Positions 3,799 to 63,816 of a stretch of 64,000 bases of DNA are shown here, one piece after another. The position numbers were made by a program, and so were the translations under genes. Origin of the DNA: Lytechinus pictus (lineage: Eukaryota). The notes beneath the pieces were generated by a model. It searched no databases and was not told the DNA's origin. It saw only the letters and a list, made by a program, of their open reading frames with translations. Each line of letters opens with the position of its first letter. Position 1 is the first letter of the stretch. The DNA is taken from NCBI RefSeq assembly GCF_037042905.1, contig NC_087245.1:26352001-26416000 (forward strand), read 5' to 3'.

Positions 3799-4324
3799 CT
3801 GGAAAATGGAGGAAAAAGAGGAAAATTATTAGAGGCAAACTGATGCTGAACTTATGAGGACTTATTTATACAAACTCAATTAAAGTTTCAGTAAAAGACT
3901 ACATAAAATGTATTAAGGTTCATTACATGTAATTCATTATATGTATGATCAAATCCAATTTTGGAATACATTCTTTAAATCTATGTTGCTGTTGCAATTT
4001 TCTTCGACTATTTTTACTTGCTTTGTTTTGAGAAAATATATGAAGATTTAAGGATTTTATTTATTCTGGATGCCAATTGTATTTTGGGTTGGTTTGCATA
4101 TAGCCTGGCCAAATTAGAGTTTGGGGAGGAACAAGTGTAAACAGAAGTGGCACATTCAAGATTAAGTTTGGGTAAGTCCTGGGAGGTCCTCTGCTATTAC
4201 TAAAACACTACTACTTGTACTATTGCTACTTCCAATACTATTTACTACAACTAAACCTTACTTATTCCGAAGGACAGCAAGCTTTGGCTAGTATGAACAA
4301 CCCTAATGGTTATCTACCACTTAC

Positions 4325-4525
4325 ATGATCATTAAGGAATCCAATGGTAAGTATAGAAGTGGCCTGCGGCATGCCATCAGCCATTGTAAGATCACCTAGC
4401 GTATCTCCTAGCAGGATGACATTGGTTCTATGCTTGTGACAGTCGAAGAATTCAGGATGGTGAACAGCGACTTCGTGCTTGTTGTACGTGTGGATCAGCT
4501 CGCCCTTGAACCCTACAAGGTTATC
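4325..4525 (-). CDS. NT5C3: NT5C3 exon 6 (DNLVGFKGELIHTYNKH...NVILLGDTLGDLTMADG...IGFLNDH)
   Basis: ccAG acceptor and GTAAGT donor; 201 nt, phase 0; HAD motif III Lys and motif IV GDxxGD. Confidence 0.96.
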
Positions 4526-7500
4526 CTGGAGAAGGAAGAAACGGTTGAGATAAGGGTTTTTAACAAAACTGGGAAATGATAATTGCAATGATAACAATTA
4601 TTCTTCAGGAATGCCACTTCTTAGAATTTGTTTCAAAAAGTAAGAAAGTCATTTAGAATACTAGTATCCCCTTTTGCACTGTCTATAACAAGGTGTTTTC
4701 GTGTCCTGAAATGTGCTGAAACAGTAGCAATCTGTACTCTGTCTGAAGATGGCATCTCAGGACCTTGTTGCATATAAGAGTATAATTATGCTACTGTACC
4801 ATACAATAGTAAGCTACCATGGTAATGATGCTAAACAGTCAACTAATATCAAAGTTTCAATGGAAGTAGTACATGTAGTAAAGTTACTATAATAGTAACT
4901 ACATGGGTCATTGGTCTTGGATTTGAGAACGTTCAGGCATCCTTGTGCATTATGCAATGAAATTGTTTGCTTGCACACATTTTTCACACAAACAAGATGA
5001 AGGCAACATGAAAGGACGCGCGAGGTAGACTCTGCTTTAGTCGACCTTCCAAATAATCACATGTCAAAGCATATTTTAAAATCACAATATGCAAACATCT
5101 GCTATTTACAACCTCTAAGTCAAATTTTTTCTCATTTATTTTATTATGGTCCCAAATGATTCAAATTTGGCAGGTTCCTTTTAATTTTCTTTTTTATGTT
5201 AAAATGTTTCAGTAATGTATCGCTTTGGTTAATACAGGCATGCTACTGTATATGAGAAAAGTCATATCAGAATAAAGTCCTTTGGCCAATATCTGAATTG
5301 GTATGCATTGAATGAATATGCAAATAAATTCCAATCATTATGTGTAAGCAGATTGCTGAAGGTTTTGTTTTGAAGTGTGTGACAGCATACATGTATATGT
5401 ATACACTGTGCAGTGGGTTTTTCTAATATTGTTTTATGAATGTAAACAAACATAATAATATCGGTATCAAATCAATTGTTGAACTTGAAATAATATATTC
5501 TAACTGCTGAAATGGGAGAAAGAACAAACAAGATTCTGGCAAAGATATTCTAAAACAACAATTCTGTTACCTGGGAACCAGAAGGAAAGACCTAGAACAT
5601 GATAATGTTTCAGATTTCCTTTATTTATGTTACATGACACTGAATGACACTTTGAAATATTGTTGAGTGCACTTTGAGCCTATTTGTCTCTTGCAACATA
5701 CTTTGGGAATTCCCATGAGGATTTGCAATATGAGAAGCCAGCAACCTGAATGTTATTATTTGTCATTAAGTCGACCCCCGCATTTATTTTTGTGTTTGTT
5801 TTGGGAAATAGTGATTTCTTCATGTTGAGGCATGTATCAGTGATATTATTTGTAAATGATAAAAACAAGAATAATGACTGCTTCGTCAAAAGAATGAAAT
5901 TGGCACTATTGATCTAAAAGCTGAATTTAAAATCTGAATAAAAACTAGTAATGCTACACTCACAATGGCGAAAGCAACCCCACACTAACCGAAGTTCTAT
6001 GCTATTCCTAATGGTATACCATCGCTTGGTTTGATGTTCCCTATTGTTGGTTTGCATTCCAAGTAGGCAAATTAGATGGCAATGCGGGAAAGTTAAGCTG
6101 TGTGCAGTGATGTAAGAGTCATTTGAATCATTGACCATTTTCAGCATGCAGTGGACAAGTCACACTTCCAAATATTCATTTATTTTTTCTATCTAATTTA
6201 CATGAATTTGATGTTTCAGTGACCACTGATGAATTTCTGTTACTTGGTATTAATTAATTGCTCCTGAGATCAACTTCAAAAATAATTTTCCACAAAGTAG
6301 TGGATATATGAACTTATCGAGTTAAACATATCGTGTTGAATGACTTCCTCATTCAAGATTATTTCAGAATAATTTTTATGTCGAGAACATTTATAAACTT
6401 GTGTCAATTGATCATTCTGATTCTGTTCGGTTTTTTGGGGGGGTTCACAAATGTAAGTGAAAAGAGAGAGAGCAGAGAAAACGTCTTGTCCCTGCAGCTG
6501 AAGTATGGTGCCTCTCAAGGGCTGAAGTATGGTGCCTCTCAAGGTAATATTATTCTAATTTATTTATTATATTAGTATACATGTTTCTTTTGCAAAGAAA
6601 GAAGCTCAATAGGAAAATATTTATTTCCGGTTGAACATGCGAATTAGGAGTTGGTTTCATCGGTGTGATCGTCCAGTTTAGCCCCCGTTACAGGAAGGCT
6701 ACCTTTCCAAAAGCCAACACTGAAGGATAACTCATGAATTCCTTAACCCAGCTCCAATCCCATCAACACCCATAGCTTCCCTCTTACAATGGCCAAACTG
6801 GATTATAGATGGCTCCCACATGCGGCAATGTTGAAGGACAAGCAATAAAACAAGTGCATCAATCTGTTATCAATCATTGTTTGTATGGTCTCATGCACAC
6901 ATTTTCAATTTTTTATTTTCTCCATGGTGGGATCATTTGTGAACCCCCTATTGTTGTGACTGCAACAAAATGTGGGATTGGTGTATGGTTGAGTGCTTCA
7001 ACCTCATACGCCTCCCATTAAAACTAAAGAAAAACAAACTTTAAAAGTATCTTAAAGAACAAATTCTAAGTCACCTCCATAAACCAAGATCATGACACCA
7101 AATGCTTTTAAAAGGGTGTGGCTCAAAATAGGGTATCCAGACATGTTACAGTGCCATTGTGTATAACATTCTAATGAGCGTTAAATTCTATACACACTAT
7201 GATCTGCACACATGATGTACTTTTACACAGAAAGGGGTATGCCTATTGTTGAGTAAAGCTCCCAAGTCCTTTGTTCTATTGTGGCATGCTTGGGACAGAT
7301 TCTCAATAAAGCACTGTCTGCTTTTAATCTTGGTTGGGATTGGAGCCTGAAGCTGATAGTAATGAATAAACATTTGGCAGGTAATAGGGGAGAGTTTGAT
7401 GAAAGACAATACTACAGGAGTCAGAGAAAGGGTACTAGATTAAGATATTGATCCGTTCGTTTATAGTCAGCATTTAATCCTAATACACTAAATATGTTGG

Positions 7501-7809
7501 GACATGGACATTTTACATTCTGTATTTGCTCAAAAGGGCAATTGCCAATAACCCCAAAATCACATCGACTTGATTATATTGATAATAAACCGATGATGGG
7601 AATCTCAAAACACTCAACGCAAATATTAATTTCAATACTCCTTTAAGGTCAAACTTTAAATGAGCATTTTGCCAGGTTAAAAATTTACTTTACAGTGTAT
7701 TTAATGAATACTAAGCAATTCACAGCAAATTTCATGTTAAAATTATGACACAGAAGCCTTGTAACATAACACTGTAAATACATTATAATTATAGCACAGT
7801 TAAGATACC

Positions 7810-7971
7810 GGGGTGGTGTTTCATAAAGCTGTTCGTAAAGTTACGCACAACTGAAACCTGTTCTTAGGCGCTAAATCAGTTACATAGAGATATCATTTAG
7901 CACAAGAAAAGGGTCACCAGTCGTGCATGAAGTCATTTGTAACTTACGAACAGCTTTATGAAACGGGCCCC
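7810..7971. mobile_element. Harbinger-like palindromic MITE
   Basis: GTTTCATAAAGCTGTTCGTAA / TTACGAACAGCTTTATGAAAC inverted repeats with GGG...CCC ends. Confidence 0.65.
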
Positions 7972-8034
7972 TGTAAGTACGTCTTTATGCAACTGGCCCC
8001 TGGATTTCTAGCAGTCCTTCCCACTCTTGCCTAC

Positions 8035-8287
8035 CTGGTCATCAAAGTCCATGAAATTTGAAACAACCTGCATGTTGGGAAAGAACTGTGAAAACTGGCG
8101 AATGGCTTCGGACAGGATGTCCCCGATTCCTGCAGAGAAGACAAGGCAAGGTACATCGGCTTCGCTGAGCTTCCTGAAGAGCTCTGTGGTTCCTTCCCTC
8201 AGTACCATGCCTGACCTAGCAATCATTTCCTTCAGGTCTGATCGCTTGAGTCCAGCTTTCACAAGCAGGTTGTGCGCACTTGTCCAC
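8035..8287 (-). CDS. NT5C3: NT5C3 exon 5 (WTSAHNLL...LVFSAGIGDIL...VVSNFMDFDDQ)
   Basis: cttAG acceptor and GTAGGC donor; 253 nt; HAD motif II FSAGIGD and VVSNFMDFD; lies inside ORF 8008..8403. Confidence 0.96.
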
Positions 8288-8780
8288 CTAAGGGAAGAAA
8301 GAAAAAAAACATGGATGTTATTAAAAGAGCTCAAAATCAGCTGAATGTTGGTCTCAATGCTCTCTTTGCCCTTATAAACCTTTTTTTTTTCATATCCATA
8401 CAAACAGGCAGAATGAAATAAAGTTCTTAGATATATTATTGTCCTTAAAATTATTTGTTTTCTTAATTATTTCTCAATATTATTTGGATTTTAAAAACAA
8501 GAGATTGTTTTGAATAAGTAAAAGTAAAAATAATAATACAAGTTTTCATTTTGCCTTTTTATAGGAGTTATACTTGAATTCACAGAGTATGAACAATTTT
8601 AGGTCTGACAGGCCCTTACAAAATTTTACATACAATCAGTCAAATAATCATCATCATAATAAAAATGATATGAGAGCTGAAATATATTACTGTGAACTAA
8701 ATACTCATTGAATTTCTATGTCATGGTATTCCAATGTTAAAAGAATATTGTTCAACCCTTACGCCATATGCTGTACTTAC

Positions 8781-8913
8781 CACTCTACCATAAGGTTATA
8801 TTTCTCATCGATCGTAATGTTATTTGCCATCTCAAGCGGGTAGTACTTGGATCGTAGCTTGTGTGCTGCCTCCCTGTAGCTTTCGGGCAGAGCCTGGCAA
8901 TCATCTAGGACAG
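8781..8913 (-). CDS. NT5C3: NT5C3 exon 4 (AVLDDCQALPESYREAAHKLRSKYYPLEMANNITIDEKYNLMVEW)
   Basis: tacAG acceptor and GTAAGT donor; 133 nt, phase 1 to 2; YYPxE...EK...MVEW family motif. Confidence 0.95.
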
Positions 8914-9116
8914 CTGTAATTTGAAATTGTACAAGTAGGGTTTCATTGCACAAAGGCTTGCAATAAAATGCTAATAGCAGTGAAGATCATTGCTACGTGT
9001 GCATTTTGCTTTAAAATGAAAGGAACAAAAATCAAAATAGTTCTTTCATATTTGCAATCTATCACAGAAATATGTGTATGGGGTCCATTGAATTACTAGG
9101 GAATATAGATTCACAT

Positions 9117-19774: not shown

Positions 19775-22700
19775 TGAATTAGCATCGTCAAATTACCGGT
19801 ACCCTTACATAGTTACATAGGCCTTATAGGCTTAGATCTATATATACATCCAATTCTTAAACACTTATCAAACTAGCTGCCATTAATGGCAAGACATGTG
19901 CTAGGGTAGGGCTAGCTCCTAGCTTAGGCTAGCGCATTAACTTTACCTCAAATCTGGACCTGTCTAATTAATGCCTAGTACTAATCAGTGTTGTAGTGCC
20001 TTGATGCTCGGCCTTGGCCTTAAGGCGCCTTAATGCCTAGCTACTTTTTCAAAGCCTTGGCCTTGAGGATTTTGAGCCTTAAAATTTTAAGGCATTTTCA
20101 AGGCTTTTTCAAGGCATTTTGTATTTTGTACTTTCATTTGTTTTAAATAAGTAATTATAAATGTTTCAATTGTTTTTTTATATATATTTAATAATGGTCA
20201 CTTCTACCAATCACCAGTAACAGTAGCAGCAGCAGTAGTAAGTGTACTAGCAGTGTCATCAATTGTAATTGTCACCATTATCAAGAAATTCAAACAAAGA
20301 ATACATCAGTTATGAAAAATAGCATTATGTATTGGTAATGTGTTGTAATCATATGATGATAATGACAGTAAATAATAATGGTCATGATCAAGATAATAGT
20401 GCTTTGATGACAAGAATAATTTTAACATCTGACTGCAATTTTGACAACAATTTTCATACTTTAAACATAGCTAACTCTAAAGAACGATAACAAGGTTGAT
20501 TTCTATTCCATTAGGATTTTCCTTGTATTATTTTCTTTGGCCAACAAGAATGTTTTAAGTCTTAATGATATTCTGAAAAGATTTGGTAAACTTGAACGCA
20601 GTCTCCAATTTTGTCATATCCAAATGGGTTATGTCAATGGCATGATGAGCCAGAAACTTTGAGGGGCCAAGCATGGCATATATAGAGCAAAATTTCTGTC
20701 AAAAAAGAAGAAAGCGATTGAAGCGAGCGAGTGAACAAAATTTGTCCCCCTCTTTCTATAAGAAAAGCTAATTTTGCAATAGATTGTTTAAAAAATAATA
20801 TCACATTTACTCCATCTTTTCCTTTCCCTTCCCCCCCCCCCTTGTCTAAGTTTATTCTTGGTGGTGGGACTTCTTCTTCTCTCTATCTCTCTTCTAAATT
20901 TTATATTTGTTTTGGGTCAGATTGACAAAACAAAGGGGAAAAAATGTTTAATTCTTTTTAATCATATATCGTTCAACATTGAATCTCATTTCTCTACAGT
21001 TTCAAGGAAATAAGCAACGTATTTGTTTTTGTGTCAATATGGTTTCAAGAAATAATAATTAACAAAAAATAATTTAATAATTAATAATTATCAATATTAT
21101 CAATAAGTATTAATAATTAATGATTAATTAACTGTTTGATAAAAGTGGTTGTAAGCAGAAAAAAATATGAAAACTGACAAGAGTCCTAAAAATGACTCAT
21201 TTTCAGTTTAAGCATTTGAAAATTTTAGCTTGCGCTTTGTGCTCTCTTGCCCCCCCCCAAAAAAAAAAATCCCTGTAGGATTTTTTTTTCCAAATGAAAT
21301 ATGCCCTTTTTAAAAAAGAAATACCTTCTTTAATAATAAAACATAATACATTTTAGGTTCGAAAATCACAGATTTTGAATCGTACTTGCATCAATTATTG
21401 TTTAGTACAGTACTGCTAATGGTTACAAAAATGTATAGAATGTTGCTTTATGGTTGAAATATCACAAATATTTGGCTCGCTTCCTGCACTCGCATCAATT
21501 ATTGTACTCGTTCTCTTCTCGTTCACAAAAAAATGCTTAGAATGTCCAGTTTTCAGGTTGGAATATCACAAATTTTTGAGCTCGCGCTTTGCGCTCGCAT
21601 TATTTTTTATTGGTGAGTTATGTATCTTATTTAAAATGCAGTAATTAACTGCTTCCTTTACTGGTCAGTATATAAAAAAAATTAGCGAGCGCAAAGTTAT
21701 TTTTTAGTTAGATACACATCTTTTTCATGATTACAAAACCAGCTCAGAATAAAATAATTTCCATGTCTTATTACACGACATGTCAAGAAGTTTGAGCTGG
21801 TGATTCGCGCTGGCAACATCGCGCAAGGAAATTTCAACAATGATTAGCCCCATAATTGACCATAAATCAAGTTTTACAACATCAGAATTGATTTTTTTTT
21901 TCAAAACCGCTTGCTCGCTATGCTTGCTCGCTGAGAAGTAAAACCTAAAGCAAAATATCTATCTTATAATTAAAAATCACTTTAGAAAGCCTTTGCTCAA
22001 CTTAATTTCTATAAAACACACAATTACTTCACACAGTTCATAATCTCATTTTGAAAATGCATGTATCTGTTTGCACAAAAAAACTCATTTTGATAAATGG
22101 GTGCCTTTTTGGCGTTGACTCCATAATAATTTTCTGTTGCCCCTGTCCCATGGAGTGGAGAAAAACATACGTTGACAATGCCAGAATCATAATTATTGCA
22201 ATGTAAATCGCCTATAGAAAAATTATGGATTATGTGTACACAGGTAACTATATCATTATTTTAATATGTCTCTATCATGAAATTATTTTTGTTTTAAATG
22301 TACAAAGGTTAATTTTTTTTTCTCGCTCAGTCCCCTCGCTCACATACATTTTACCATGTGTGATGTCTGCCGCCTAATTGTTAGTTCATTGTTCTGTATA
22401 TCGTAAGTTTGAAATGCCTTGGCCTTGAGGTTTTCAGGCCTTGGCCTTGGGTTTCCATGCCTTGGCCTTTGGTATTGAAGCCTTGGCCTTGGGTATTAAA
22501 GCCTTGGCCTTGGAGGTTTGAGCCTTGACTACAACACTGAATAGCCGACTAATGCCATGGTTAACTTCGAACTGGTTAATTTCGAACTTCACGTTTAATT
22601 AGGTTTAGACAAATATTAGCTTATTTGCCATGGTTTAATATGTCTAGTCCGTATACAAAACCAGTCCTAGATCTAAAAAAAATTTATCTTAGTTCTAGTC

Positions 22701-23754
22701 TAGTCTCTATATCTAGACTCTGATCTACGCTGTATCAGCATGGAACCACTATAGTGTAACAAGGGGGGGGGGGGGGAGACTGTCCCTCTGACGAGTCACA
22801 ACTGATTCAGGGGGCGTGCCCCCTTTGAGAAGCCAAATTAATAATTTGTAATGTAAAAATGCAATGAAAAAGACGTATGTCCCCTTTTTTGAACGTGAAG
22901 ATCTTTTCTTTTTTTTTTTGCTTGTCAATTTTTTTTTCAGCTAAGAAATCCATAATTTGGGGTGAAGACCCTTTTTTTTTGGGGGGGGGGGCTTGTCACA
23001 TTTTTTCGCGGACGAAATATCCTCTAAAAAATTTGCCCCCCTTTTGGAAAATCCTAGGTACACAGTGCGTGCATGGAACGTATTCTAACGTCAGGCACAA
23101 ATTAACGTCAGTGATCTTGATCCCTGTCTTCACCCAAAATTAAGGATATAGCTGAAAAAAATTTGACAAGAAAAAAAAAAAGATCTTCACGTTCAAAAGA
23201 GGGGACAAACGTCTTTTTTCGTTGCATTTTGACATTACAAATTATTAATTTGGCTTCTCAAGGGGGGGGGGGGCACGTCCCCTGGATCAGTTGTGACTCG
23301 TCAGGGGGGCAGTCTGCCCCCCCCCCCTTTGGTACACTAGTGGTTCCATGCTGATAGCGCGTAGATCAGAGTCTAGATCTAGAGACTAGACTAGAACTAT
23401 GAAATTTTTTTTAGATCTAGGACTGGTTCTGTATACGGACTAGACATATTAAACCATGGTAAATAAGCTAATATTGGTCCAAACCTAATCAACGTAAAGT
23501 TCGGAATTAACAAGTTCGAAGTTAACCATGGCATTAGTCGGCTATTCCTATTAGTATTAGGCATTAGACAGGTCCAGATTTGAGGTAAAGTTAATGCGCT
23601 AGACTAAGCTAGCCCTACCCAAGCACATGTCTTGCCATTAATGGCAGCTAGTTTGATAAGTGTTTAAGAATTGGATGTATATATAGATCTAAGCCTATAA
23701 GGCCTATGTAACTACTGTATGTAAGGGTACCGGTAATTTGACGATGCTAATTCA
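19775..23754. repeat. Long inverted duplication: left arm 19775-19985 plus 22540-22943, right arm 23149-23754
   Basis: Continuous reverse-complement match of ~600 bp once the 19986-22539 insertion is removed; ~205-bp spacer. Confidence 0.9.
19986..22539. mobile_element. 2.55-kb non-autonomous TIR element (CAG...CTG, hAT-like ends)
   Basis: TIR CAGTGTTGTAGT / ACTACAACACTG; GCCTTGGCCTTG subterminal arrays; absent from the opposite palindrome arm; no ORF. Confidence 0.85.
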
Positions 23755-25536
23755 GCCAGTGGCGTAATGAGCCAGACGTGGCTCATGGGGCCCAAAATTT
23801 TCCCTCTTTTAAACATATAAATCATTATTATCTTAAAGTCCTATTCATAAAACAATATCACATTTCACCCCTTTCATTATCTCCATTTTATTTTTATTTT
23901 TTTTGGGGGGCGTGAAAATTTGGGGGTCCATGACCCCAAGCCTTCCATCTGTACGCCAATGTGTATAGCTCGTGTCCAAAATTCCTAATTTTAGCAAATA
24001 ATTTTAGCAAAAAGTATCTCTTGATTTGCTCCTCCTATTTCGAAGTGATAAAATTTGTTTTGCTTGTCAGAATTCGTGTAAAAAAAACACCACCCACCTC
24101 ACTCCCCTCAGCAGAGTGAGCACAACTTTGTTCTCTTGTAAGCGGCGCAATGAGCTAATAACTTTGAGGGTTCCAGATATGGCGTATCGGGCAAAATCTA
24201 TAAAAGATGCGAGCGATCGAGTGAGTGAGCTAAAATTTTGATATTTTTATTACAAAAATCTATTTTATGATAATTTTTGACATAATTCAGAAAATTATAT
24301 ATATTTTTACCCTTCTTTCTATCCTTTTTTTTTCGTGGTCATGAATTTTTTTTTTTTTTTGGGGGGGCCGCCCCAAGCTCCCCCATTTGTACGCCACTGC
24401 CTCTTATTTCAACATTCAAAGATTAATGAAATAATGTCCCTTAAAGAACAATTCAGAGATTTTCAGCGTTCCCCTCCTTTGTTTTAATTGAAATCCTGGA
24501 TCTAACCATGGACCTACTAGAGTAGGTCCATGATCTAACCTTGCCAGAGACGCGGAATGATGCATTACTGACACACGACAAGTGGTCGCACGTTTTAGCT
24601 TCTGAATATTATTGACAACACTTCAACCCTGTTGATATAAGCAATCATAATCCAAAATATTAATGAGAAAAGTCATAGAGTTACCATGGAGCTAGACGAC
24701 ACAGTGTTTTGCCCAGATTTCCAACATGACCTTGATTCCGTCAAACTTCTTTCTAAAATATAGCCTAATTTCCAAGATTATTTCAACCTTCAATTAAATA
24801 TTTGACCCTACACTCTTGCTATAAGAGACAATTTGATCATTATAAAACTCATGTTATGAATAATATTAATGTTTTTGATGTTCTGATTTTAATGTCTGTG
24901 ATTACCTTTTCACAACTTCAAAGAAAACAAATGCACAACTTTTTACAACTTCATTTATTATATTATTTTGATGTCAATTTTTCTTTCGATAAGAATGACT
25001 TCATTTCGTGTCAATGATTTGCCAAAGAGAATTGTCAATAATAACCCAAATCAGGGTTAATAAACCCTGGTTATGAACCATGAATAGCTATACCATTCAT
25101 GGCTTATATAATATATATATTTCGCAGGGGGCGCGGGCGGTTTTAAAAATGAATGTGACGGGATAGGCTGAGCCAATTTTTTTAAGGGGGGGGGGGGGTG
25201 ACCAAGCAGAAATCACAATCATTCGGTCATTTTTATTTTTTGTGCACGTTTATTGAAGAAAAAAAAAGTGAAGGGTGTTGAGCCCCCATCCCTCTCCTCA
25301 GTTCTGCGGCCACTGAATTTCGTGGCATGGTGGGGAAAACTTCGTAGAAAGGGGGAAATTTGTTTAATCCATTCAGGTTTTTAGCCGATGACATCACAAC
25401 CCCATTTGAAGGTCATAAACATTCAGGATCCTCATATAGAATGACGCATTCCGCCCAAATTAATTCTGTACTGATTATTATTTTTTAGAATCTGACTCAT
25501 TACTCTCTCCAACAGGGCAGGCCAGTACTTCGTTCT

Positions 25537-25682
25537 GGGGCCCGTTGCAGAAAGAGTTGTGTTAAACGCAAGTTAAAAAATCAATCGCAAGTCCCAAATG
25601 CGCGCTGTTGATTGGTTGGAAATCAAGTTACGCATGATTTTTAGAGTTGCGATTGATCGCAACTCTTTCTGCAGCGGGCCCC
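25537..25682. mobile_element. PIF/Harbinger-like MITE
   Basis: GGGGCCCGTTGCAGAAAGAGTTG...CAACTCTTTCTGCAGCGGGCCCC. Confidence 0.75.
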
Positions 25683-25734
25683 AGATGAGATAGGCGTATT
25701 TTGAACCACATCTTGATCATAATGATAACCATCA

Positions 25735-26374
25735 GGGGAGCGTTTCATCAACATTTTTGTCCGACAAGTTGTCTGGGGAGTGTTTCATCAAGATTTTCAT
25801 CCGACAAGTTGTCAGATCTGACATCTTTCTCTGATGTTGATTGGCTGAGAGGTACTGTTACTATGGTAACTGTCGGATAAAATGGGACTTGTCGGATAAA
25901 ACGTCCGACAAGTCCTTTCATGAAACGCTCCCCAGATCTGACATCTTTCCTTGATTCTGATTGGCCGAGAGCCACTGTTACTATGGTAACTGTCGGATAA
26001 AACCGGGGGGCGTTTCATGAAAGGACTTGTCGGACGTTTTATCCGACAAGTCCCATTTTATCCGACAGTTACCATAGTAACAGTACCTCTCAGCCAATCA
26101 ACATCAGAGAAAGATGTCAGATCTGACAACTTGTCGGATGAAAATGTTGATGAAACACTCCCCAGGACTTGTCGGATAAAACGTCTGACAAGTCCTTCAT
26201 GAAACACTCCCCAGGAGTGGATACCCGCGGAGCGTTTCATGAAGGGACTTTGTCCGACAAGTTCTGTTTTATCCGACAATTACCATAGTAACAGTACCTC
26301 TCAGCCAATCAGAATCAAGGAAAGATGTCAGATCTGACAACTTGTCGGACAAAAATGTTGATGAAACGCTCCCC
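25735..26374. mobile_element. Four copies of a ~160-bp Harbinger-like MITE, two nested inside the first
   Basis: GGGGAGYGTTTCAT...ATGAAACRCTCCCC termini; copies at about 25735-26212 (split), 25775-25933, 26005-26163 and 26227-26374. Confidence 0.85.
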
Positions 26375-26375
26375 A

Positions 26376-26649
26376 GGGCTCCGTCTTACAAAGAATTGCG
26401 ATTGATCCGATCAACCCATAGAGACATCTCTATGGATCAACCACAACTCCCCACAACTATGGATGGCCAGCAACGTCTACATCTAAAATGCAGATTTGTT
26501 CAAAATAATTTCTAGATATGATGTATATTCAAAATTCATTTTTCTCTTGAAGATTCAGTGTGATTCTTTTTGTTTACTAAGAAGACAAAATGGTATGGAT
26601 TGAGTTGAGATTGATTGGATCAATCGTCACTCTTTGTAAGACGGGGCCC
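26376..26649. mobile_element. Harbinger-like MITE
   Basis: GGGCTCCGTCTTACAAAGA...TCTTTGTAAGACGGGGCCC. Confidence 0.75.
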
Positions 26650-29600
26650 ATGCAGCGCTGTACTTTGGATCGATCACTGGCGTACATCTTAGGGCAATGA
26701 CCGCCCCACACCTACCTCAAAATATCTACCACTAAAAAAAGGAGAAAGAAGGGGGGAAAAGGAAAGGTATAATATTGTTTTCTGAAAACTATGGCAATGT
26801 CTATCATGAAATTAGTTTTTCTTGTAGTGCTCAATTGGGGGTAAGCTGCCTATGAACCGAGAACATCACACTTTCAAGCAATTATATTGTCAAAGAAAAC
26901 TTTTGGATTGTTGGAGAATATCGACAAAACGACAAATCTCGGTCATTAATGAATGACTCTGATTGAGAGAAGCATCTACGTGTGTGGTAGTACTATTGAG
27001 GAGCAGTTTCTCTCGCCCATCGCGCGAAGCGCGAATGCGCTCACGTCATCAATTCTGAAACCGTTTAAGGCAAATATGACTGTTTCTTGAAAGATATTGG
27101 TGTTGACCTTAAGAAAAAAAGACTAGTTAATGGGAAAAAGAAACATGCCAGAAATTATCAGGCCACGGTGCATCTAATTACGAGCGAGTAACCCAAGTGA
27201 GGAAAATAAGCTTTTTTTTTTCATGATGGAGTTTTCCCTCACTGACTTTTTAGCATAAGTGGATAGGCCTACGTTATGGAACCTATCATAAAACTTGAGT
27301 TCATCTGTACATGATCAAGTACAATGAATGAATCTGAAAAATCACCCGGCACCAGGATATTTTGATTGGAGGGAATGGAGGGGGGGGGGGGGCGTGAAAC
27401 GACCTATAAAACTGACGCCTTAATTATGATTATGGGGATAGTTACACAGCTCAGACCTCAATTTTTTACATTCTCCTTTCTTCCCTTCCCTCTCTTTCTT
27501 TGCTCCTCCCTTTTCTTTTCTTTACACTTTTCAACCTATCCCTGCCCCTCCTGTGGTTTCGCCCCTGAATACTTGCAGACTTGTACTGAGCAGTCCCAAC
27601 TGACATCAAGTCTAATAAGGTCATGCCCCCAATGTCATTACCACCTCGCTGACTCGCACCGAAACTCCATGTTCGGATGCAAACCAATGGCATAAATCCA
27701 TCATTGTGGAGCAGCAAAATGTAAATTCCTGCTGACGTTTCATTCTGCAAACACTAAATATGCTGCAGGTGTCATTATAGGGGAGGGTGGGGGTGGTTCT
27801 GGCAAAATAATTTAAAGGGAGCTTTGAGGACCACTCTTATAAAATCTCTCTCTTTTGAGGCAACTTCTTGCACGCATTCTTTTGGGGACTATTCTTGAAT
27901 CGCGGTAACCCCCAACAGGGGATCTTTAAAAGAAAATCACTTCATCAGGCCATAATTTAGTTGTTTCTTTCCGTTTTGCACTTGCAGGGGCATGGGCGGA
28001 AATCTGTCCCCAAGGGTAGGGGGACCAGGGGCTGGGAAATTTGACTTGCTATTTTTGGTAGGGGGACGCGTCCAGGGGAGTAATTCATCCTAATAAATAC
28101 TATTTTTTTCTAAATAACATACATGAATCAGAGAATTGCCTAACTCCCACTTACTATGCGTCGATGGTCTCTCGTATCCCGCAAAAGACGGATGTTACAG
28201 TGCTAATAATTTATTATAATACTAAAAAAGTCTGCTGTGCAAACCCTTAACTGGAGTTAAGGGTCTGAATGTGCAGCCTACTAATGCTTTGTGTACTGAA
28301 GGCCCCAAAAGCAAGTTTTGATCGCCTTCCTATGAATAGTTGTTTGGAAACCACTTCATATAATCATAGCTTGTATATTTTGCTTTGTCTACTTTATTTA
28401 CCAAACACATTGCCACATTCCTTTTTTTTTTGGGGGGGGGGGGGGTGGTGGGGGAGGATAAGTGGGTAGGTTTTTTTTTTTTATTATTATTATGGTTGTT
28501 ATTTTTTTGTGTAACTAAATTGTGTTTATGTGATTTGCAATCACCTATTAATCATTTGTAAATTTTGTGATTTATTTCAATTTGAATAATAAAAACAGAA
28601 TTATAAAAAAAGTTTTGATCGCCTTTGCATAGAGACCCACTTGTTGATCAAAGTTTCAATCGGGGTCTGTGCCTGCAGACTACTTATATACATCAGTAGT
28701 AGCCCAATCATTCCGGGAATCATCGTATATAGTAAATATATTTTAAATGTTTATTATTTTCAGCTACCACAGACGTCAGCTAGTGTATATGTCTTACAAA
28801 TTGCAGTCATAAATGTAAAGGTACATCAATGAGATGTGGAAAATCTCTATATATATTCTTTAATTAATCAAGTAACTTATTTATTTACTTTTATACAAAA
28901 CTTCGTATATACTGTCTAGTATTAAAAAAGTAATACATACGTCGTACGAATAATATACACCTGTTAACCCCCCCCCCCCCCCCCTCTACTAACATTCAGA
29001 TCATGTTGGAGGGAAGTGAATATCATCGGGGAAACAGCAAATTTGCATATTTAGCATGTTTCCTTGTCCTGTATTATCATTATCTATCAAACTTCAGGAA
29101 ATATCTTATTGCTGATATTGTCATAACCCAATGGATATGGCTTTAACGTTATTATGTTACCGGCTGCAGACATGCCGAAATTCTTTTCACCCATTCGGAT
29201 TTGATACTTGACCTTTATGTCTGCATATACTTCACTGCATGTTTGGGGGAGGGGTTGGAGAGGTCGGGTGAGGTTTGGTGAAATCTGTAACGTTGCCGAT
29301 GGGGGGGGGGGGGGGCATTTCGATCATTTTTCATGAAGCTGATCAGCACTAAGCAAACAGTCATTCTCTGTCAGTTGCCATGGTAACAATCAGAGACAAG
29401 TTTTGCTAAGCCAATTAAAACCAATGATTTCATATTGTCAGAGGTGACTAATTTCAAGAAACGGTCCCTGGCAAGCAATTCGATCTATACCCGTTATTTT
29501 GCTTTAAAAGTCCAATATGTACTCCTTGTCCTTTAACAGGTTTGGGGTCAGGGGAAGAGGGGGGGGGGGTAGAAACTAGAGTGACTAAGAACTCCTTATT

Positions 29601-30088
29601 GTTACCTTTTTTTACGTTTTAAGAACATTTGAGTAAATCATCCCACTTTCTGTGCCCCCGTTATTTATGAAATCCTGGATCTACCCCTGCCATCTGCATC
29701 ATCGTCTGCGCCGATATATCCCCAGAGAGAGATTCATTTTTTTAGTCAAAGGAAACTTTTGTCTTGTTGGTTTTCTCACTCCACCTACGCACTCCGTCTA
29801 TACTCTCACTCCTCTCAGTTTGCAAAATATTATTGTCTGTTGAGATTTTCAAAATTCTCAGAGTAACAACAGATCACTGGGAAAATTGTTGTTATATCTG
29901 AAATGGGATGTGACTTTGTCTGAATTGCTACGTCAGATAGTAATCTGTTGTGTGGTTTGGAAGACGTCTTCTTGAAAGGAAACAACCAACATTCTCGATC
30001 AACAAGGTAGGTTAAAATTGTTGATTATAATATTCAAGTTGGAATTTAATTTATTAATTTGTTTTTATGCAGTGATATCGAGTATGTA

Positions 30089-32666: not shown

Positions 32667-34919
32667 TTAATAATTACACCATAAATTTATAATGTTATTC
32701 AACCCCATTGGTGTATTCATACACATTCATATAAAACTATATGGTGCATTTTTCACACCTGGGATATGGTATTCTATCACATCACCCATTAGTGTTTATA
32801 AATTACACTAACACCTTAGTTTTCTACGATCTATCTTTCCCTGGTCGAATAATATTTGAAGTATAGGCCTACATCTCACAATGTCACCTTGATCTCTTAT
32901 GCAAATGAATCGAATAGATAACCAAATAAAAACAATTACCATTGTCATTTGGCGAAGAGATAGCGAGAGAGCAGAGACAATTTTCCAGTTCCACAGTGCT
33001 TGGTTTTTATTCAGGGGATTATTACAATTTTATATTGCACGCTTGTCGTCTCAAAACGAAGGTAACTAGCCTCAAAAACAAATTGCTACCAATATTGTGG
33101 CTGTAATTGTTGTTGTGTGTATGGTTTTATGATTAATCATATTGTTTCTATATAAAATATTTATGATCTATAATTGAGACAGGCCTGTGTGTCATATTGT
33201 ATAGGTTACACAACATAAGATTGAAAATGGATTATCTCATCATTAAAATAATGTCCAGCCTTCATCAGATCTATTGAATTTCTATTCCATGCGATAAAAG
33301 TGTGATTCTGCGCACAATGATTATGATTGGTGATAATAGACTTCGGCTCTATACATAAATACATTTGCATTTTGTCGGTAAACGACACATATAGCATGTC
33401 GATCAAATTTCCAGGGGGTGCGAGTATATAGCTGATAAAATCGGGGGTGCTTCCCGCATCCCAGGGCCATCATTTCATATTGAAGCAAAATGCTAGCCAA
33501 GTGTTGGAAGGAGTGATTACTATTTTTTACGAGACAACGTTGCATCCATAAAAAAAAAAAAAAAACAGGGTCGCAAACTTTTTTTCCATGGTTAAGCCAT
33601 GCAGGGAATAACTCTTCCCTGCATTTAAGCGGAAATTGCAGTTTCCTTCGCTGGCGCGTTTTTTCGATTGCGTAATGTCATGTGTGAATATGTTATTCAA
33701 CAGTTCAATGAATCAATGTCAATGTCCTACATCATTTTTGCTTTTTTATTGTTCTGCCTAATGTAACACTGTGTTTTAAAATGTCAATGTTTGGCATGGT
33801 GAAAACAAAATAAAACAAACCAACCAACAGGGAGAGAAATAGGAGTCGTTTATTTAATTTTGTTTCATTTTTATTTCCAGGAACACAATAGTAATAGTGA
33901 TCGGATCAAACTATACAGCAACATGTTTTGCGGATCGAGAGTCAAACATTGGCGGAAAAAAGGGGGAATAGACCGAGGCGTAAACGAGGCAAAATTTCTA
34001 TTAAAAAAGTATCGAGGGACCAACAAGTTTGACCTTTTGTATTGAAAATCTAATTTTGTGCTAGATTTTCTATAAAAAAAAATTATTCGCCCTTCTACAT
34101 TTCCTTTTACATTTTGTCTCTTTTCATTTCTTTCTTAGTCGTGGAAAATCTCGAGACAGAATCCCTGCTTGATAAATGATGATGATCACATAGATGAAAA
34201 TATTACTAAATTGAATATATTTATTGTGTCTTCCTGATATTTTCTGATCGAGGTTTTAAAAGGGCAGAAAACTTGACGTTTAGCAGGAGTATGCAGGGTC
34301 ACGTTAAAGTGCATGGGCAATGATTTGTTTAAATTTCCGACAAGGCCCCCATAAAAAAAAGGGGAAAAAAGAGGAAAAAAAAACGGGGCGGGGAGGGGAG
34401 GGGTTCTCACTCCAAAATTGTATACGCAAATATAGACTGAATTTGAAGCACATAAAAGAAAGAAAAGAGATTCTAAGTGGTAAATTTTAAAGTTTGTGTG
34501 AAAAGAGTTATGCACGTCGTCATGAATATTCATTAGATGGGCTGATGATGTCACCCTTTTCTTATGCTTTTACATGAAATCATAATTGTTTCATTTTTAA
34601 TACATGTGCGAGTGATTATGTCCCCCTTGTAATTAAATAAATAGCAGCAATGACTACGTAATGCACTTAAGCAGTTGTTATTCCAATATTTTTGGTTCTT
34701 GAAGGAATAAAAATGAATAAACCTAATTTCATATAATAAAATACAAAATAACAAATGGGGATATGACATAATCAGTTTGCTCATTAATGTTCATGAAGAC
34801 ATGCCTATATAGGCCTATAGAACTACTTCACCAGAATAATGCAAATTTTTAAAATGCCATGACTTTTTTGATCAAGTTTTCAGTGTTTTGTTTGTCTGAT
34901 TTTTCTTAATCTGTTTAAA

Positions 34920-38024: not shown

Positions 38025-38843
38025 TAGCCTGGAGGCGTCTGGGGAGTAAAAATCATGGTACTATCGTACACTTACTCTCCAAACGCCTGGGTCGGGAAGG
38101 TATGCCTCGCTGTAGAGGCTAGCCTAGGATTACCCATGGTGATTTATTTAGGTCTAGTTTCACCAATTTTTATTTTTTGTAAAGCGCCAAAACTAAAGTA
38201 CATGGGCAAGTTTTATGTTTACCCCCATTTTTTATCAAATTTTCTAATTTTACTTGAATACTTATTTTTAAAATCGAAGAAATGCAAGTAATTTTTTAAT
38301 CCAAGTTGGCAGCTATACTGTATACAGTGTAGAGCTGCCAACTTGGATTAAAAAATTACTTGCATCTGCCGATAGATATCAGGAATTGTAAAATATTTGT
38401 TTTAATCAATAAATATCATATAAATTACTTTATGATATTTATCAACCGAAACAAATATTTTATTAATCGGCAAATGCAAGTATTTTTAAAATCTAAGTTG
38501 CAGCTCTGCACGCGTGTGGTATCTAGGTATCGATAACAAAAGAATGGAAAATTGCGACGTAAACAGACGGGGTAAGTGAATGCTCTTGCTCTTAATTTTC
38601 TTCGATTTTAAAAATAAGTATTCAAGTAAAATTAGAAAATTAGATAAAAAATGGGGGTAAACATAAAACTTGCCCATGTACTTTAGTTTGGGCGCTTTAC
38701 AAAAAATAAAAATTGGTGAAACTAGACCTAAATCACCATGGGAAATCCTAGCCTCTACAGCGAGGATACCTTCCGACCCAGGCGTTTAGAGAGTAAGTGT
38801 ACGATAGTACCATGATTTTTACTCCCCAGACGCCTCCAGGCTA
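38025..38843. mobile_element. Foldback element with ~260-bp TIRs, TAGCCTGG termini and 8-bp TSD GATAAACC
   Basis: TSD at 38017-38024 and 38844-38851; arms about 38025-38282 and 38597-38843; internal hairpins. Confidence 0.88.
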
Positions 38844-43717: not shown

Positions 43718-44537
43718 TAGCCTCTTGTGGAGGCCCTGTCGGCTGCTTTAAGCTTTCCTAAATTTCACCGACTTTCTTTTGTTATTTTATTGTTTTTACC
43801 AATATACCGACCAAAAACTGGTCGGTAAAAATCATCCAATGAGAGCGCGGGCTGCTATGATGTCATATTGAATATTCATGAGCTCATCTTGAATGGCGAC
43901 CCGTGGATTCTTGGCTAAGAGTGACGACGAAATATCAAAGAGCATTGAATATGCCTCTAAAATGCTGAATATTGACCGATTTAAGGATTTGCAAGTCGAT
44001 AAAATTAAATCTGCACTGAAAGGACGAGATGTTTTTGTAAATCTACCCACAGGATATCAAAAAAATGTTATCTTTCATGCGATTTCACTGTGTGTTGATT
44101 ATCGTTCTCCGCGGTGCAGTGAGGGAATGCTGGAGTAGAGTTGTTTCCCCTTGACTCGAGTCTGACCCGCGGCTGACCAGTATCTCCCGGCAAGTTTCGG
44201 GGCGGTGATGGGTCTTTTACGGCCAGTACTAGTAGTAGTAGTAGTAGTACCACTGCTTGTACATGTAGCACTTTGCTGGTTATATCCCCTTTAGTGTCCA
44301 GCAATTAATCGAATCCCCTGCAGAATAGTGGACTACTATAGTATTCCGAACCCCGGACAAAACGGCTTTGACATTTCATTGGTTTACTAGGTGACCGGTG
44401 ATATTACAACTCATGTATATTCATTAGGAAGACGTTCCTCATGAATATATAATTCAGATCAGATGTCAAGAGGCCCTGGCTCGCGCCATCCCTCGCTTCG
44501 CTTGGGAAGCAGCCGCCTGGGCCTCGACAAGAGGCTA
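43718..44537 (+). mobile_element. Academ (AcademH-like) deletion derivative carrying a RecQ-helicase fragment
   Basis: TIR TAGCCTCTTGT(G/C)GAGGCCC at both ends; exact 9-bp TSD TGTAATACA (43709-43717, 44538-44546); internal helicase-like ORF. Confidence 0.85.
43893..44138 (+). pseudogene. Truncated RecQ-like SF2 helicase N-terminus (transposon cargo)
   Basis: FKDLQ...IKSALKGRDVFVNLPTGYQK corresponds to motif 0/Q motif plus a degenerate Walker A (PTGYGKS to PTGYQKN). Confidence 0.75.
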
Positions 44538-54154: not shown

Positions 54155-54839
54155 TTAAATCAAGGTTTGATCATCAAAATTGTGAGGAATATGGAATGAT
54201 AAAAAAATAAAGACCAAAATATTTTATCATCAGATAGTTTCAGTTCTTCTGTTACGACCATACAATACCACAATACCAAAACCTGTTCATTTATGTATTG
54301 CGTGTACATGTATAACCAAGGAGATATCTCCTTGGTATATTAAACATTCCATAGTATACCCGGATTCTTGTGTGAAAACAGAAAAAGACTCTGTCAAGTC
54401 CAAAGTGTTATGTGTTATTGAAAAGTGGGTGTTGGCCACGCAGCATGACCTAAATTTTAATCATAACCTTCCCAAACTTGCCAACCTGTTGCATCTGACT
54501 CTGCAAAAAGTTTTTTTTTTATAATTTTTTTTAAAATTAGATTTTCTAACCTGGCTCTACACATGACCAGCTTTTGTAACCACACAAAGACATTGCTTGG
54601 GTTTATTCGGTATTAATGGTATTTGATAATCAAGTTCACATACAGTGTGAATTTGTTCTATATTTTACAGTCTGTTGGTCGAATGACTGTTCAGGCCATT
54701 AATGGACACAATGAAGACCGGATGTTAAAGATCAAATTATTGATTTGGGGGATGTAAATACTAAATACTGTAAAATACATTGATGAAATGTCACAGATGT
54801 GAAATTAATTTGTAAAGCTCAGGATGGTGGTGTACATTA

Positions 54840-60061: not shown

Positions 60062-60560
60062 CTCTAGAACCGAAATGTTATAGCATGGAGTGAGCTCCAT
60101 GGTTATTGGGCTAAAATGGGGTTCTCATTGCTGAAGCACAGACATTTATAATGATTACTACCCCCCCCCCCCCTCCTCCATCCCTGGGATCACTGTCTTG
60201 CCCTATATTCATTAGTATTGAAATGATTCACATGGGGGAAAGATCAAGGCGCAACACATATCAAAATAGTCAATCGTATGTTTCAATTCCATTTCCTGGT
60301 TAAACATATCCTGGCATGAGAAACATGTTTGATATATTTAAGCTAAACAATAGATAATCATGTGTGAATTGTTGGGAACTACAGGTGATTAGTTCCCACA
60401 ATAATATTGTAATTACAATGACTCGATTGGCCACTCCCTCTTTTTTTTAGTCAAGTTTTTATTGTCCATTGAGTAAACTTTTTTTTTTTTTTTGTTCTAA
60501 GAACAAGTACATGTAGGGCATACTGGTAGGCATACAGAGCTATTAATAGATGTATCTTAA

Positions 60561-61065: not shown

Positions 61066-61949
61066 TTAAATGGCTGTCATCATGGCTGCCATTTTAAGCT
61101 CAAGTTAAAATTCGCCCGTATTGGGTGACGGAGATGGGGTTTCATGAATCTAGAGAGGACTACAGTATGTATATAAACCAGGCTAAAATCATTAAAAAAG
61201 GATTAAACAAACTAGTGTTAATGGGACCTGCATCGCAGGGAAAAATTGCACCTTGTCTTGGAGTGATTTTGTCTCCCCGCCCCCAAATGCTGAAAAGAGC
61301 CCTAAAAAGTATGTTAGTGCCCCAGAAAATCCCCATTCACTGTGATATTAAAGCTGATTCAATGTTGCAGATTTAGTCTCTGGGTTGTGAAAAATAGCTC
61401 CCCCCCCAAAAAAAAAAAAAAATAATAATAATTGATAAATTTTTGCCTGCTGCACAGGGGTAGTACATATATGTCATCTTCTATCCTGGTATCATTTGCC
61501 AGTGGAAGAATGTTGCTAATATTAAATCCTCACCAGGGGCAGAGTCAAGGCCACCATAGACCCGTTCTGCTGCACGTTTTTTCAATGACCATTCCCTGGT
61601 GAACCCAAACACTTCCTGTCTGCCTCTGCTCCACATATTGAATGAATTTGGGGAGGTCATGAACTTGAAACATATCGTTGACCTTTGCAAGCCCTTTCAG
61701 GTCCATCCTTGTTGATATCATCCAGACCACACATGTTCTTCCATCCTGTTTGAATGAAATGGACAGAATCCTGAGCAGACGCAGGATTTTGGGGAGTTGG
61801 TAAGGGACCAAGGGCGGACACCTATCCCCTTTTTCTTGAACTCTGATGTGTTGGATTATGACTGACTCTAACCGAATTATTGCAAGTAATATAGCTAATT
61901 TTGACATCTAAAAAATGAAAATCCCCAAGAGAAAAGTACAAATATAATA

Positions 61950-62400
61950 GTAATAGATTCAAGAAAAGTTAAGAGTAGGAAGCATTGAATAGACGAGTCT
62001 TTAAAGGTAACTTTTAAATGTGTCAATGGAAGTGCATTCATGGATTACCAGGGGAAGATCATTCCAGAGAACAGTGCCAGCTGTGAGCAAAAGCCTGAAC
62101 CCCCCATGTCTAACAGATTTGGGAATAACTAGGGAACCAGAGTTGGATGAATGTAGGGACCTGACAGGAGTGTATTTGTTGATTAGATTAATATTGTACT
62201 GTGGAGCAGAGCCGTTAATTGCATGGAATACAAGGAGAAGGATTTTGAAGATGATGCGATCGTTAACCTTTAACCAATGAAGAGATTTCAGAATGGGTGT
62301 GATATGAACATGTTTTTTTGATAGGGTGACCAAACGTGCTGCAGCGTTCTGGAGCTTTTGGAGTTTAGACAACTGGGTGTTGGGTAAATTGTAAAGCTCA
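61950..62400 (-). mobile_element. 5'-truncated L2/CR1-group LINE, ORF2 C-terminus
   Basis: KLQKLQNAAARLV...HITPILKSLHWLKV..RIIFKILLL...LWNDLP...FKSYL is a typical L2 ORF2 tail. Confidence 0.88.
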
Positions 62401-63816
62401 ATTGTAAAGGTCAAAATATACCCAAGCCAACTCTTTATCACTGCCAAAATAACCACATCTTTGCCTCCCCCAAAGTTGAGGCCATCTAAAGTGTTTTTAC
62501 AAAAGACCGAAACGGTCTATAATGAGATGGGGTACAGGTACATACTGAACATGTATATATGACGGAAATGTACTTTTCTATCCCCTCTCATGAAGCCCCA
62601 GTGGAAGCTCAGTTTCTTGTAGGCCAGATTATAATGGACATTTCTTCTTTATAATGGAGCGAGATAAAAGATTGCTGAAGGAACCAAGTATTTTCTAACC
62701 ATTTTAGGGGGAATAGGACTAATAAACTTCTTCAAACACTTTAGTGTGCTACTATCCAAGCAAATTAATCCTTGAACCAAGTGACCCAACCCATTGTCAT
62801 TAAAAAGCAAAAAAAAAAGGCATTTTATTGAATAAGAGGTTTCTAGAAAGAGATTGAAATTATAGAATGGTGTGTTTGGGAGATCAAAGAAAGGAAGGAG
62901 ATGCATCAGTGATTTATTATTATTTATACATCATTTTAGAAGAGAGTGTTGTGGAATTCTTAATTGATTTTGGTCGAATTTCATTCTAGATCTCCATGAT
63001 TTTTGCTTACAATTGGCCAATCAGATTCAATGATTTCAGTAACTTATCACATGAGTCAGTGAAAGCAAGGATTTTCAAACAGAATCGTTGTAATATGAGT
63101 AACATGTCACTTTGTGAAGTGCTCCCTAAATACCCTCTGCCCAGATATTATTGCTCACATATTTTCATTGAAAACAACTTCATTGGTCTCGATGTTTTGC
63201 TGAAATTGATTTTTAGTTAAACCTTGCATGTTTACCCCTATAATGACAAACACAAACGTATGGGCTTTCTCTCACTCTCCTGCATGCCCAGGTCCTGTGA
63301 AATGTACTTCTCATGACATCTGGGGTTGTAATTGTAGGAGATACTCCCCAATAATCCATATGAATTGACAAATGGATCCTTCAATACCTGTTTGCAAGGA
63401 AGTGTAAAATGTAAAAACTCACAAAACATCTGTTGAATTGTCAAGAGGAAGACCATAGATTTCAGTCAATATCATATCCCAGGTGTTAACATTTTTGTTT
63501 GTTTATACTGTATGCAGAGCTGTTATCGTGACATATACTGTACATGTATGTAGGCCTACATGTAGTTGTTCAGTCATGGACTATTAGATTAAGTTTCAAG
63601 TTCAACTCAAGCACTTGTTTTCATCTTGAAAAAAATGATACATGAAAATAGTGTTGAAATCCTGATGGTTTTATATGTAGGTCCCAAGACAGTTCGGGGA
63701 TCAATGCATACACACCTATACATTGTTACTGTATCCAGAACTGTAATGTCAAGCTATATGTAGATCTAGATAAGAATCTAGTGTAAATGCCGAAATCCCA
63801 CTGTCACGCTTAGCCC

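Follow-up and report, generated by a model that had tools for sequence, protein, structure and literature searches.

The 26-bp palindrome at positions 24507-24532 is a recent insertion with a 7-bp target duplication and is very probably an excision scar of the type expected for a transposon resembling the P superfamily. It lies within a window (the whole 64-kb stretch of DNA that was analysed, to which all positions refer) that consists of repeat-rich animal DNA. An earlier note, made from the sequence, had interpreted the structure at 24500 as a P-type scar, an interpretation supported by an excess of such structures over shuffled sequence, an empty orthologous site, junctions of 24, 26 and 28 bp and a target motif similar to that of 1360 and Galileo. 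The polarity of the insertion, the length of its duplication, the recurrence of the core in three lengths, the enrichment and the resemblance of the target motif were all observed. The P-like assignment is based on anatomy and not on a parent element, and membership of the P superfamily is unproven.

Structure of the repeat-flanked hairpin

The elements of the structure and its host sequence are as follows.

24500..24506, no strand: left copy of the 7-bp target-site duplication, ATCTAAC; present as a single copy in orthologous contigs.
24507..24532, no strand: 26-bp hairpin, putative excision scar composed of head-to-head transposon-end stubs of 14+12 or 13+13 nt; orthologue without the hairpin, and 24- and 28-bp variants in other contigs.
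24533..24539, no strand: right copy of the 7-bp target-site duplication, ATCTAAC, exact.
24489..24543, forward strand: host sequence belonging to a MITE-like repeat family, whose 3' end the insertion at 24507 interrupts; in register with paralogues once 26+7 bp are removed.

Sequence inspection revealed that 24500-24539 is composed of a 7-bp repeat, a 26-bp hairpin and a second 7-bp repeat. The hairpin has a perfect 12-bp stem, a 2-nt centre (AG) and CA...TG termini. The CAT...ATG hairpin with an exact 7-bp duplication that was first reported at this position was reproduced exactly on re-inspection. Deletion of 26+7 bp at 24500 restored the register with paralogues in the window at 29668 (20/22 positions), 11919 on the minus strand (17/22) and 9360 (16/22).

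The sequence flanking the hairpin bears on two explanations that require no P-type excision. In the first, template switching or polymerase theta would have copied flanking DNA into an inverted and direct repeat as a local repair artefact, without a transposon. Immediately upstream, 12 bases agree with the stem at 8/12 positions, as such copying might leave; however, a young and perfect structure should copy its template exactly, whereas the best match within approximately 150 bp is 9/12. With the further evidence from recurrence and termini given below, this explanation is barely credible. The second, which we regard as highly improbable, is a scar from a different superfamily whose excision likewise leaves end stubs; hAT would be an example for the 8-bp class. 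Duplications of 8 bp and CA ends are common to hAT elements (the hobo target motif) and no transposase was linked to the scars in the window, but hAT excision is described as forming hairpins on the flanking DNA and leaving random footprints that keep no element ends (available text of PMC3878927), and three of the four sites in the window carry 7-bp duplications. The palindromic filler copied from the flanks that characterizes a hAT footprint was not found, the best match of the stem to its flanks being 9/12.

Empty orthologous site

Four public runs (X1, X2, X5 and X3, comprising three samples from three studies) were compared at 80% with positions 23960-26700 of the window. Between 5 and 9% of sampled window words were present in the runs, a value that is no evidence on its own. 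Orthologous contigs approximately 95% identical to the window were found in 4/4 runs, and they lack exactly 33 bp (26+7). Position 24498 is contiguous with 24532 in X1 record 1 and X2 record 8; the same 33-bp skip in X5 and X3, for which one piece each was listed, was derived from piece ends and distances. Since the skip removes the hairpin together with one repeat, the structure at 24500 is an insertion with target duplication. An orthologue with a single copy of ATCTAAC, proposed earlier as a test of the scar interpretation, was found in all four runs. The orthologous contigs may represent a sister species or a distant population, since many differences are common to all samples.

Recurrence of the core and junction variants

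In the four runs, summed depth over the hairpin exceeded the depth of the orthologous contig by a factor of 34-64, a measure of recurrence and not of copy number. The high depth indicates that the core recurs elsewhere, though the sampled organism is without the insertion at 24507. The presence of the core at other loci largely refutes the local repair artefact introduced above.

Two variants of the core were detected, in each case in few but deep contigs. Among the rows listed, the variant shorter by two letters was found in at least 10 contigs of X1, at least 3 of X2, none of X5 and at least 10 of X3, and the variant longer by two letters in at least 3, 2, 3 and 3 contigs of X1, X2, X5 and X3, respectively. 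The variants, seen as the core alone without flanks, are perfect palindromes of 24 and 28 bp. The 24-bp form corresponds to a pair of identical 14-nt ends that overlap by annealing of a self-complementary 4-nt tip, the 28-bp form to a blunt join and the 26-mer of the window to 14+12. The series of 24, 26 and 28 bp fits that expected from end-joining of two identical transposon-end overhangs; alternatively, the 26-mer may be a 24-mer in which two bases were duplicated later. The tail length is not fixed by the data for 24507 since the junction is palindromic, the 28-bp variant being compatible with ends of 14-19 nt; the 17-nt tail known from Drosophila is compatible with the structure. No long-element end at 24507 was found among the loose ends listed in the contigs of the runs.

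The recurrence was also considered in terms of a palindrome of 18-28 bp that is itself mobile, a minimal element moved in trans with a fresh duplication at each insertion, which would be the smallest transposing unit. Such a unit would account for the many places at which the core recurs, the exactness of the duplications and the lack of a detected parent in the window. Nevertheless we consider it very unlikely, since Drosophila P and zebrafish Pdre2 have internal transposase sites or subterminal repeats in addition to their terminal repeats, more than 26 bp can accommodate (available text of PMC7776569), and one end with three centre lengths fits repeated joining better than the copying of one unit. 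The anatomy of a self-mobile non-autonomous MITE, with uniform copies and an interior, was likewise not found; the interior is 0-4 nt and there are three core lengths.

Other hairpin sites in the window

Three further structures resembling that at 24507 had been reported at 26417, 54317 and 60084, and all are real, with an exact 8-bp repeat, a repeat with two mismatches and a repeat with one mismatch, respectively.

26409..26442, no strand: second putative scar, an 18-bp CATAGAGA-type hairpin (26417-26434) bounded by exact 8-bp duplications and located in the left inverted repeat of the MITE at 26376-26649.
26443..26452, no strand: separate 10-bp insertion (8-bp duplication plus 2 bases) adjoining the second scar and not part of it; family contigs skip 36-37 bp, not 26.
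54310..54341, no strand: third candidate scar, older, an 18-bp perfect palindrome (54317-54334) with a 7-bp duplication containing two mismatches.
60077..60108, no strand: fourth candidate scar, an 18-bp hairpin (60084-60101) with a 7-bp duplication containing one mismatch.

All four sites in the window have CA...TG termini and are symmetric, with centres of 0-4 nt, and three of the four are exactly 18 bp. The target duplication is 7 bp at three sites and 8 bp at 26417. The empty form of the site at 26417 is matched at 41/48 positions by the other arm of the host MITE, and family contigs carry on directly after 26416 (153 in X1 and 169 in X5). The family contigs skip 36-37 bp because the 10-bp insertion adjoins the scar. 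That second small insertion (26435-26460), made up of an 8-bp duplication and 2 further bases, overlaps the scar's right duplication and is possibly another excision footprint at the same spot.

The symmetry of these sites is relevant to a further alternative, in which each structure is an extreme internal-deletion derivative whose element tips were left by aborted sister-chromatid gap repair or by a later deletion, and in which stub length would be uninformative on cut depth. In wild-type flies the most frequent outcome is synthesis that aborts before the ends are joined (available text of PMC2895639), and the lengths of the CATAGAGA class in metagenomes are spread over 19-28 bp among the matches listed, the pattern having a ceiling of 28. 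This alternative is nonetheless unlikely: the window sites are symmetric with centres of 0-4 nt, three of them measuring exactly 18 bp, no intermediate-length copy with the same ends is present in the window, and the 24- and 28-bp variants are perfect palindromes.

Several other hairpins were rejected as candidates. Eight of 12 with CA-N-R-G ends (1311, 1932, 12013, 20050, 24674, 25052, 33587 and 33602) have no flanking repeat. The 26-bp hairpin at 33599-33624, with a 10-bp stem, has a 7-bp repeat with one mismatch and was left out for its non-CA termini, and the hairpin at 20076 sits in a local repeat.

Enrichment over shuffled sequence

Hairpins were scanned without regard to their termini (stem of at least 7, loop of at most 8, low complexity excluded) and the counts were compared with those in 200 block dinucleotide shuffles. 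In this terminus-blind scan, 5 of 109 hairpins were flanked by a 7- or 8-bp repeat with no more than one mismatch, whereas shuffled sequence gave 0.245 on average and never more than 2; the repeat was exact for two hairpins, a result obtained for none in the 200 shuffles. The terminus consensus was taken as CA-N-R-G, a consensus for which no statement was found by literature search. Repeats with at most two mismatches flanked 4 of the 12 CA-N-R-G hairpins; the mean in shuffles was 0.124 and 0 of 500 shuffles reached 4. The CA-N-R-G figure is optimistic since the filter was picked after the sites were seen, which does not apply to the terminus-blind figure. Ten control termini yielded no repeat-flanked hairpins except one, which is the site at 54317 shifted by a base. 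The restriction of repeat-flanked hairpins to CA-N-R-G ends among the 11 termini tested is further evidence against a local repair artefact. It had been proposed that a frequency no higher than in dinucleotide-shuffled sequence would speak against scars; in both scans the repeat-flanked hairpins were far above the shuffles. The density of 4 sites in 64 kb corresponds to 62 per Mb (Poisson 95% range 17-160; one window).

Target motif

The three 7-bp duplications agree with the 1360 target motif GTTNAAC (PMC3276498) at 13/18 positions (P=3.7e-5 relative to resampled 7-mers of the window, for a small sample). A 7-bp duplication is typical of 1360 and Galileo (PMC3276498, PMC3698922, PMC4168063, PMC2775673). 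As judged from sequence, the duplications in the window resemble the GT...AC-type palindromic target motif of these elements, a resemblance that would fit P-type excision. The available texts of the same four papers describe for 1360 (Hoppel) and Galileo 7-bp duplications of GT...AC type (GTTNAAC, GTANTAC) and occasionally of 8 bp, as in the window; in contrast, 1360 and Galileo themselves have long ends, and the host of the window is not an insect. The word "footprint" is absent from the available text of the Galileo and BuT5 literature examined for it.

Parent element

In the 64-kb window, none of the four termini was found to bound a long element, and a search of 408 kb of metagenome loci likewise revealed no longer parent with the same exact ends. 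Look-alike ends occurring singly at 7883, 28628 and 36058 were rejected, as none is paired with a duplication-bearing partner. A P-superfamily parent would be expected to encode a THAP domain and an RNase H DDE transposase with a GTP-binding insertion; among the 150 longest of 555 open frames in the window, no match to THAP or P-transposase families of Pfam was obtained. The window holds four candidate scars with no parent element found, a combination that itself needs explaining in view of the fly data below.

Metagenome and viral contigs

Metagenome contigs were scanned with termini of the 26417 type (CATAGAGA) separated by a centre of 0-12 nt, the pattern imposing a length ceiling of 28 bp, which returned at least 121 matches in at least 120 loci. 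Six of the 121 matches listed are flanked by an 8-bp repeat, exact in five. When the flanks were cross-paired, none of the 14,278 pairs matched exactly and 37 matched nearly, from which 0.31 repeats with at most one mismatch are expected. The six repeat-flanked matches are 19, 20, 24, 27, 27 and 28 bp long. Open-frame cover is 0.18-0.64 in the six loci, whereas the median of 75 other loci is 0.84, and on visual inspection the six contigs look like repeat-rich animal DNA. In one of them (L053) an upstream paralogue reads through the site without the insert. Viral contigs scanned as a control with the 26417-type termini gave 0 of 121 matches with a flanking repeat.

The hairpin of 24507, with a centre of 0-14 nt, gave no matches in metagenome contigs. 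Its 14-nt end was found in 49 loci of viral contigs, with one match each, taken as chance. A 31-bp CATAG-type hairpin with an 8-bp repeat containing one mismatch was observed at 5627-5657 of a contig of low coding cover (L005); it was left uncounted, an animal origin not having been shown.

Proposed mechanism and comparison with known systems

A pathway that could generate the structure at 24500 begins with insertion of a P-superfamily-type cut-and-paste DNA transposon, which would have duplicated 7 bp. The long element presumed to have been there would later have been excised in the germ line, probably by a P-type transposase, whose cleavage falls at the element end on one strand but well inside the element on the other. 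With such a staggered cut, each donor end would keep a long 3' single-stranded tail of element sequence. The two tails would then have been end-joined by a presumed repair pathway, with some trimming or with annealing at self-complementary tips, and the product would be the duplication, an end stub, an inverted end stub and the duplication. The ends of the 24507 family appear identical for at least 14 nt, which would be consistent with a tail of 14-17 nt or longer. The 18-bp sites may represent other families or deeper trimming.

The closest comparison is with Drosophila P, the transposase of which cleaves one strand at the element's 3' terminus and the opposite strand 17 bp further in (PMC7776569), such that excision leaves 17-nt 3' tails on the donor (PMC2895639). 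Table 1 of the latter reports, for end-joined fly donors, a duplication, a stub starting CATG, an inverted stub and a duplication, with microhomology, blunt and insertion junctions. The layout in the available text of that report (Chan, Yu and McVey 2010, PMC2895639) is as at 24507, and its junction classes would fit the 24/26/28 series. The fly junctions were obtained in the laboratory from repair mutants and have an 8-bp duplication, 17-nt tails and a known parent, whereas the sites in the window belong to a natural genome and have several end sequences, duplications of both 7 and 8 bp, lengths of 18-28 bp and no parent found in the window. In the long-microhomology classes of flies (20 isolates), little or nothing of the stubs survives, and sister-based repair is favoured at first (PMC2895639). 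Since fly joins often erase the stubs and sister repair is initially favoured, the high density of long-stub scars in the window needs explaining.

Among deuterostomes, the zebrafish Pdre2/THAP9 element is P-like, with CAT...ATG ends, a 13-bp terminal repeat and an 8-bp duplication (PMC10983969, PMC7776569); however, the Pdre2 end CATAC, as given in the available text, does not fit the CA-N-R-G pattern of the window sites. Tc1/mariner footprints also contain overhang sequence between copies of the target duplication after end joining, as in the window, but consist of 2-3 nt of element and a TA duplication (PMC3878927) compared with 9-14 nt per end and 7-8 bp in the window.

Significance of the scars

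Cut-and-paste excision normally leaves 0-6 bases, which are not assignable to a family. The scars described here would retain sufficient sequence from both ends for the family to be named and for the event to be dated relative to an empty orthologue, and would constrain the cleavage geometry of P-like transposases outside Drosophila. At 62 per Mb, they would be a common source of small insertions overlooked by repeat annotation. The mechanism is already known from fly assays; the P-type excision scar seems to be a laboratory-known outcome that is here fixed in a natural genome many times over. New in this analysis are the orthologous empty site, the 24/26/28 series and the matches in other animal-looking contigs. 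A natural genome-wide class of P-type scars was not found described in the literature searched, a search that mostly did not extend to subscription journals and Repbase Reports. We see about an even chance that excisions by many P-like families have left a dense and legible record in marine animal genomes, with 9-14 or more nt of both ends per scar, such that family-specific cut depth and germ-line repair choice could be read from assemblies without a transposase.

Other features of the window

The window contains no Rfam matches. Spliced exons of a pyrimidine 5'-nucleotidase (UMPH-1) were identified at 4313-8986 on the minus strand, the sole Pfam match above cut-off among the 150 longest of 555 frames. 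Frames at 61545-62516 on the minus strand resemble by eye the end of a decayed LINE reverse transcriptase, with no Pfam match at E 0.01. The sequence TACATGTA occurs 73 times (raw count) over 3924-63564, clustered at approximately 40-46 kb and 50-59 kb, with 2 occurrences between 15.8 and 39.7 kb.

Nested long inverted repeats occupy 19841-23683, with arms at 22539-22917 and 23168-23547 and a wider pair extending from approximately 19841 to 23683, an arrangement that suggests a foldback-type element with nested MITEs. A very high-copy MITE family, self-nested and with 161-bp inverted arms, is present at 25735-26376, and a second high-copy MITE at approximately 25537-25684. Two MITE-like elements of approximately 820 bp that start with TAGCC are located at 38025-38843 and 43718-44537, flanked by exact duplications of 8 bp and 9 bp.
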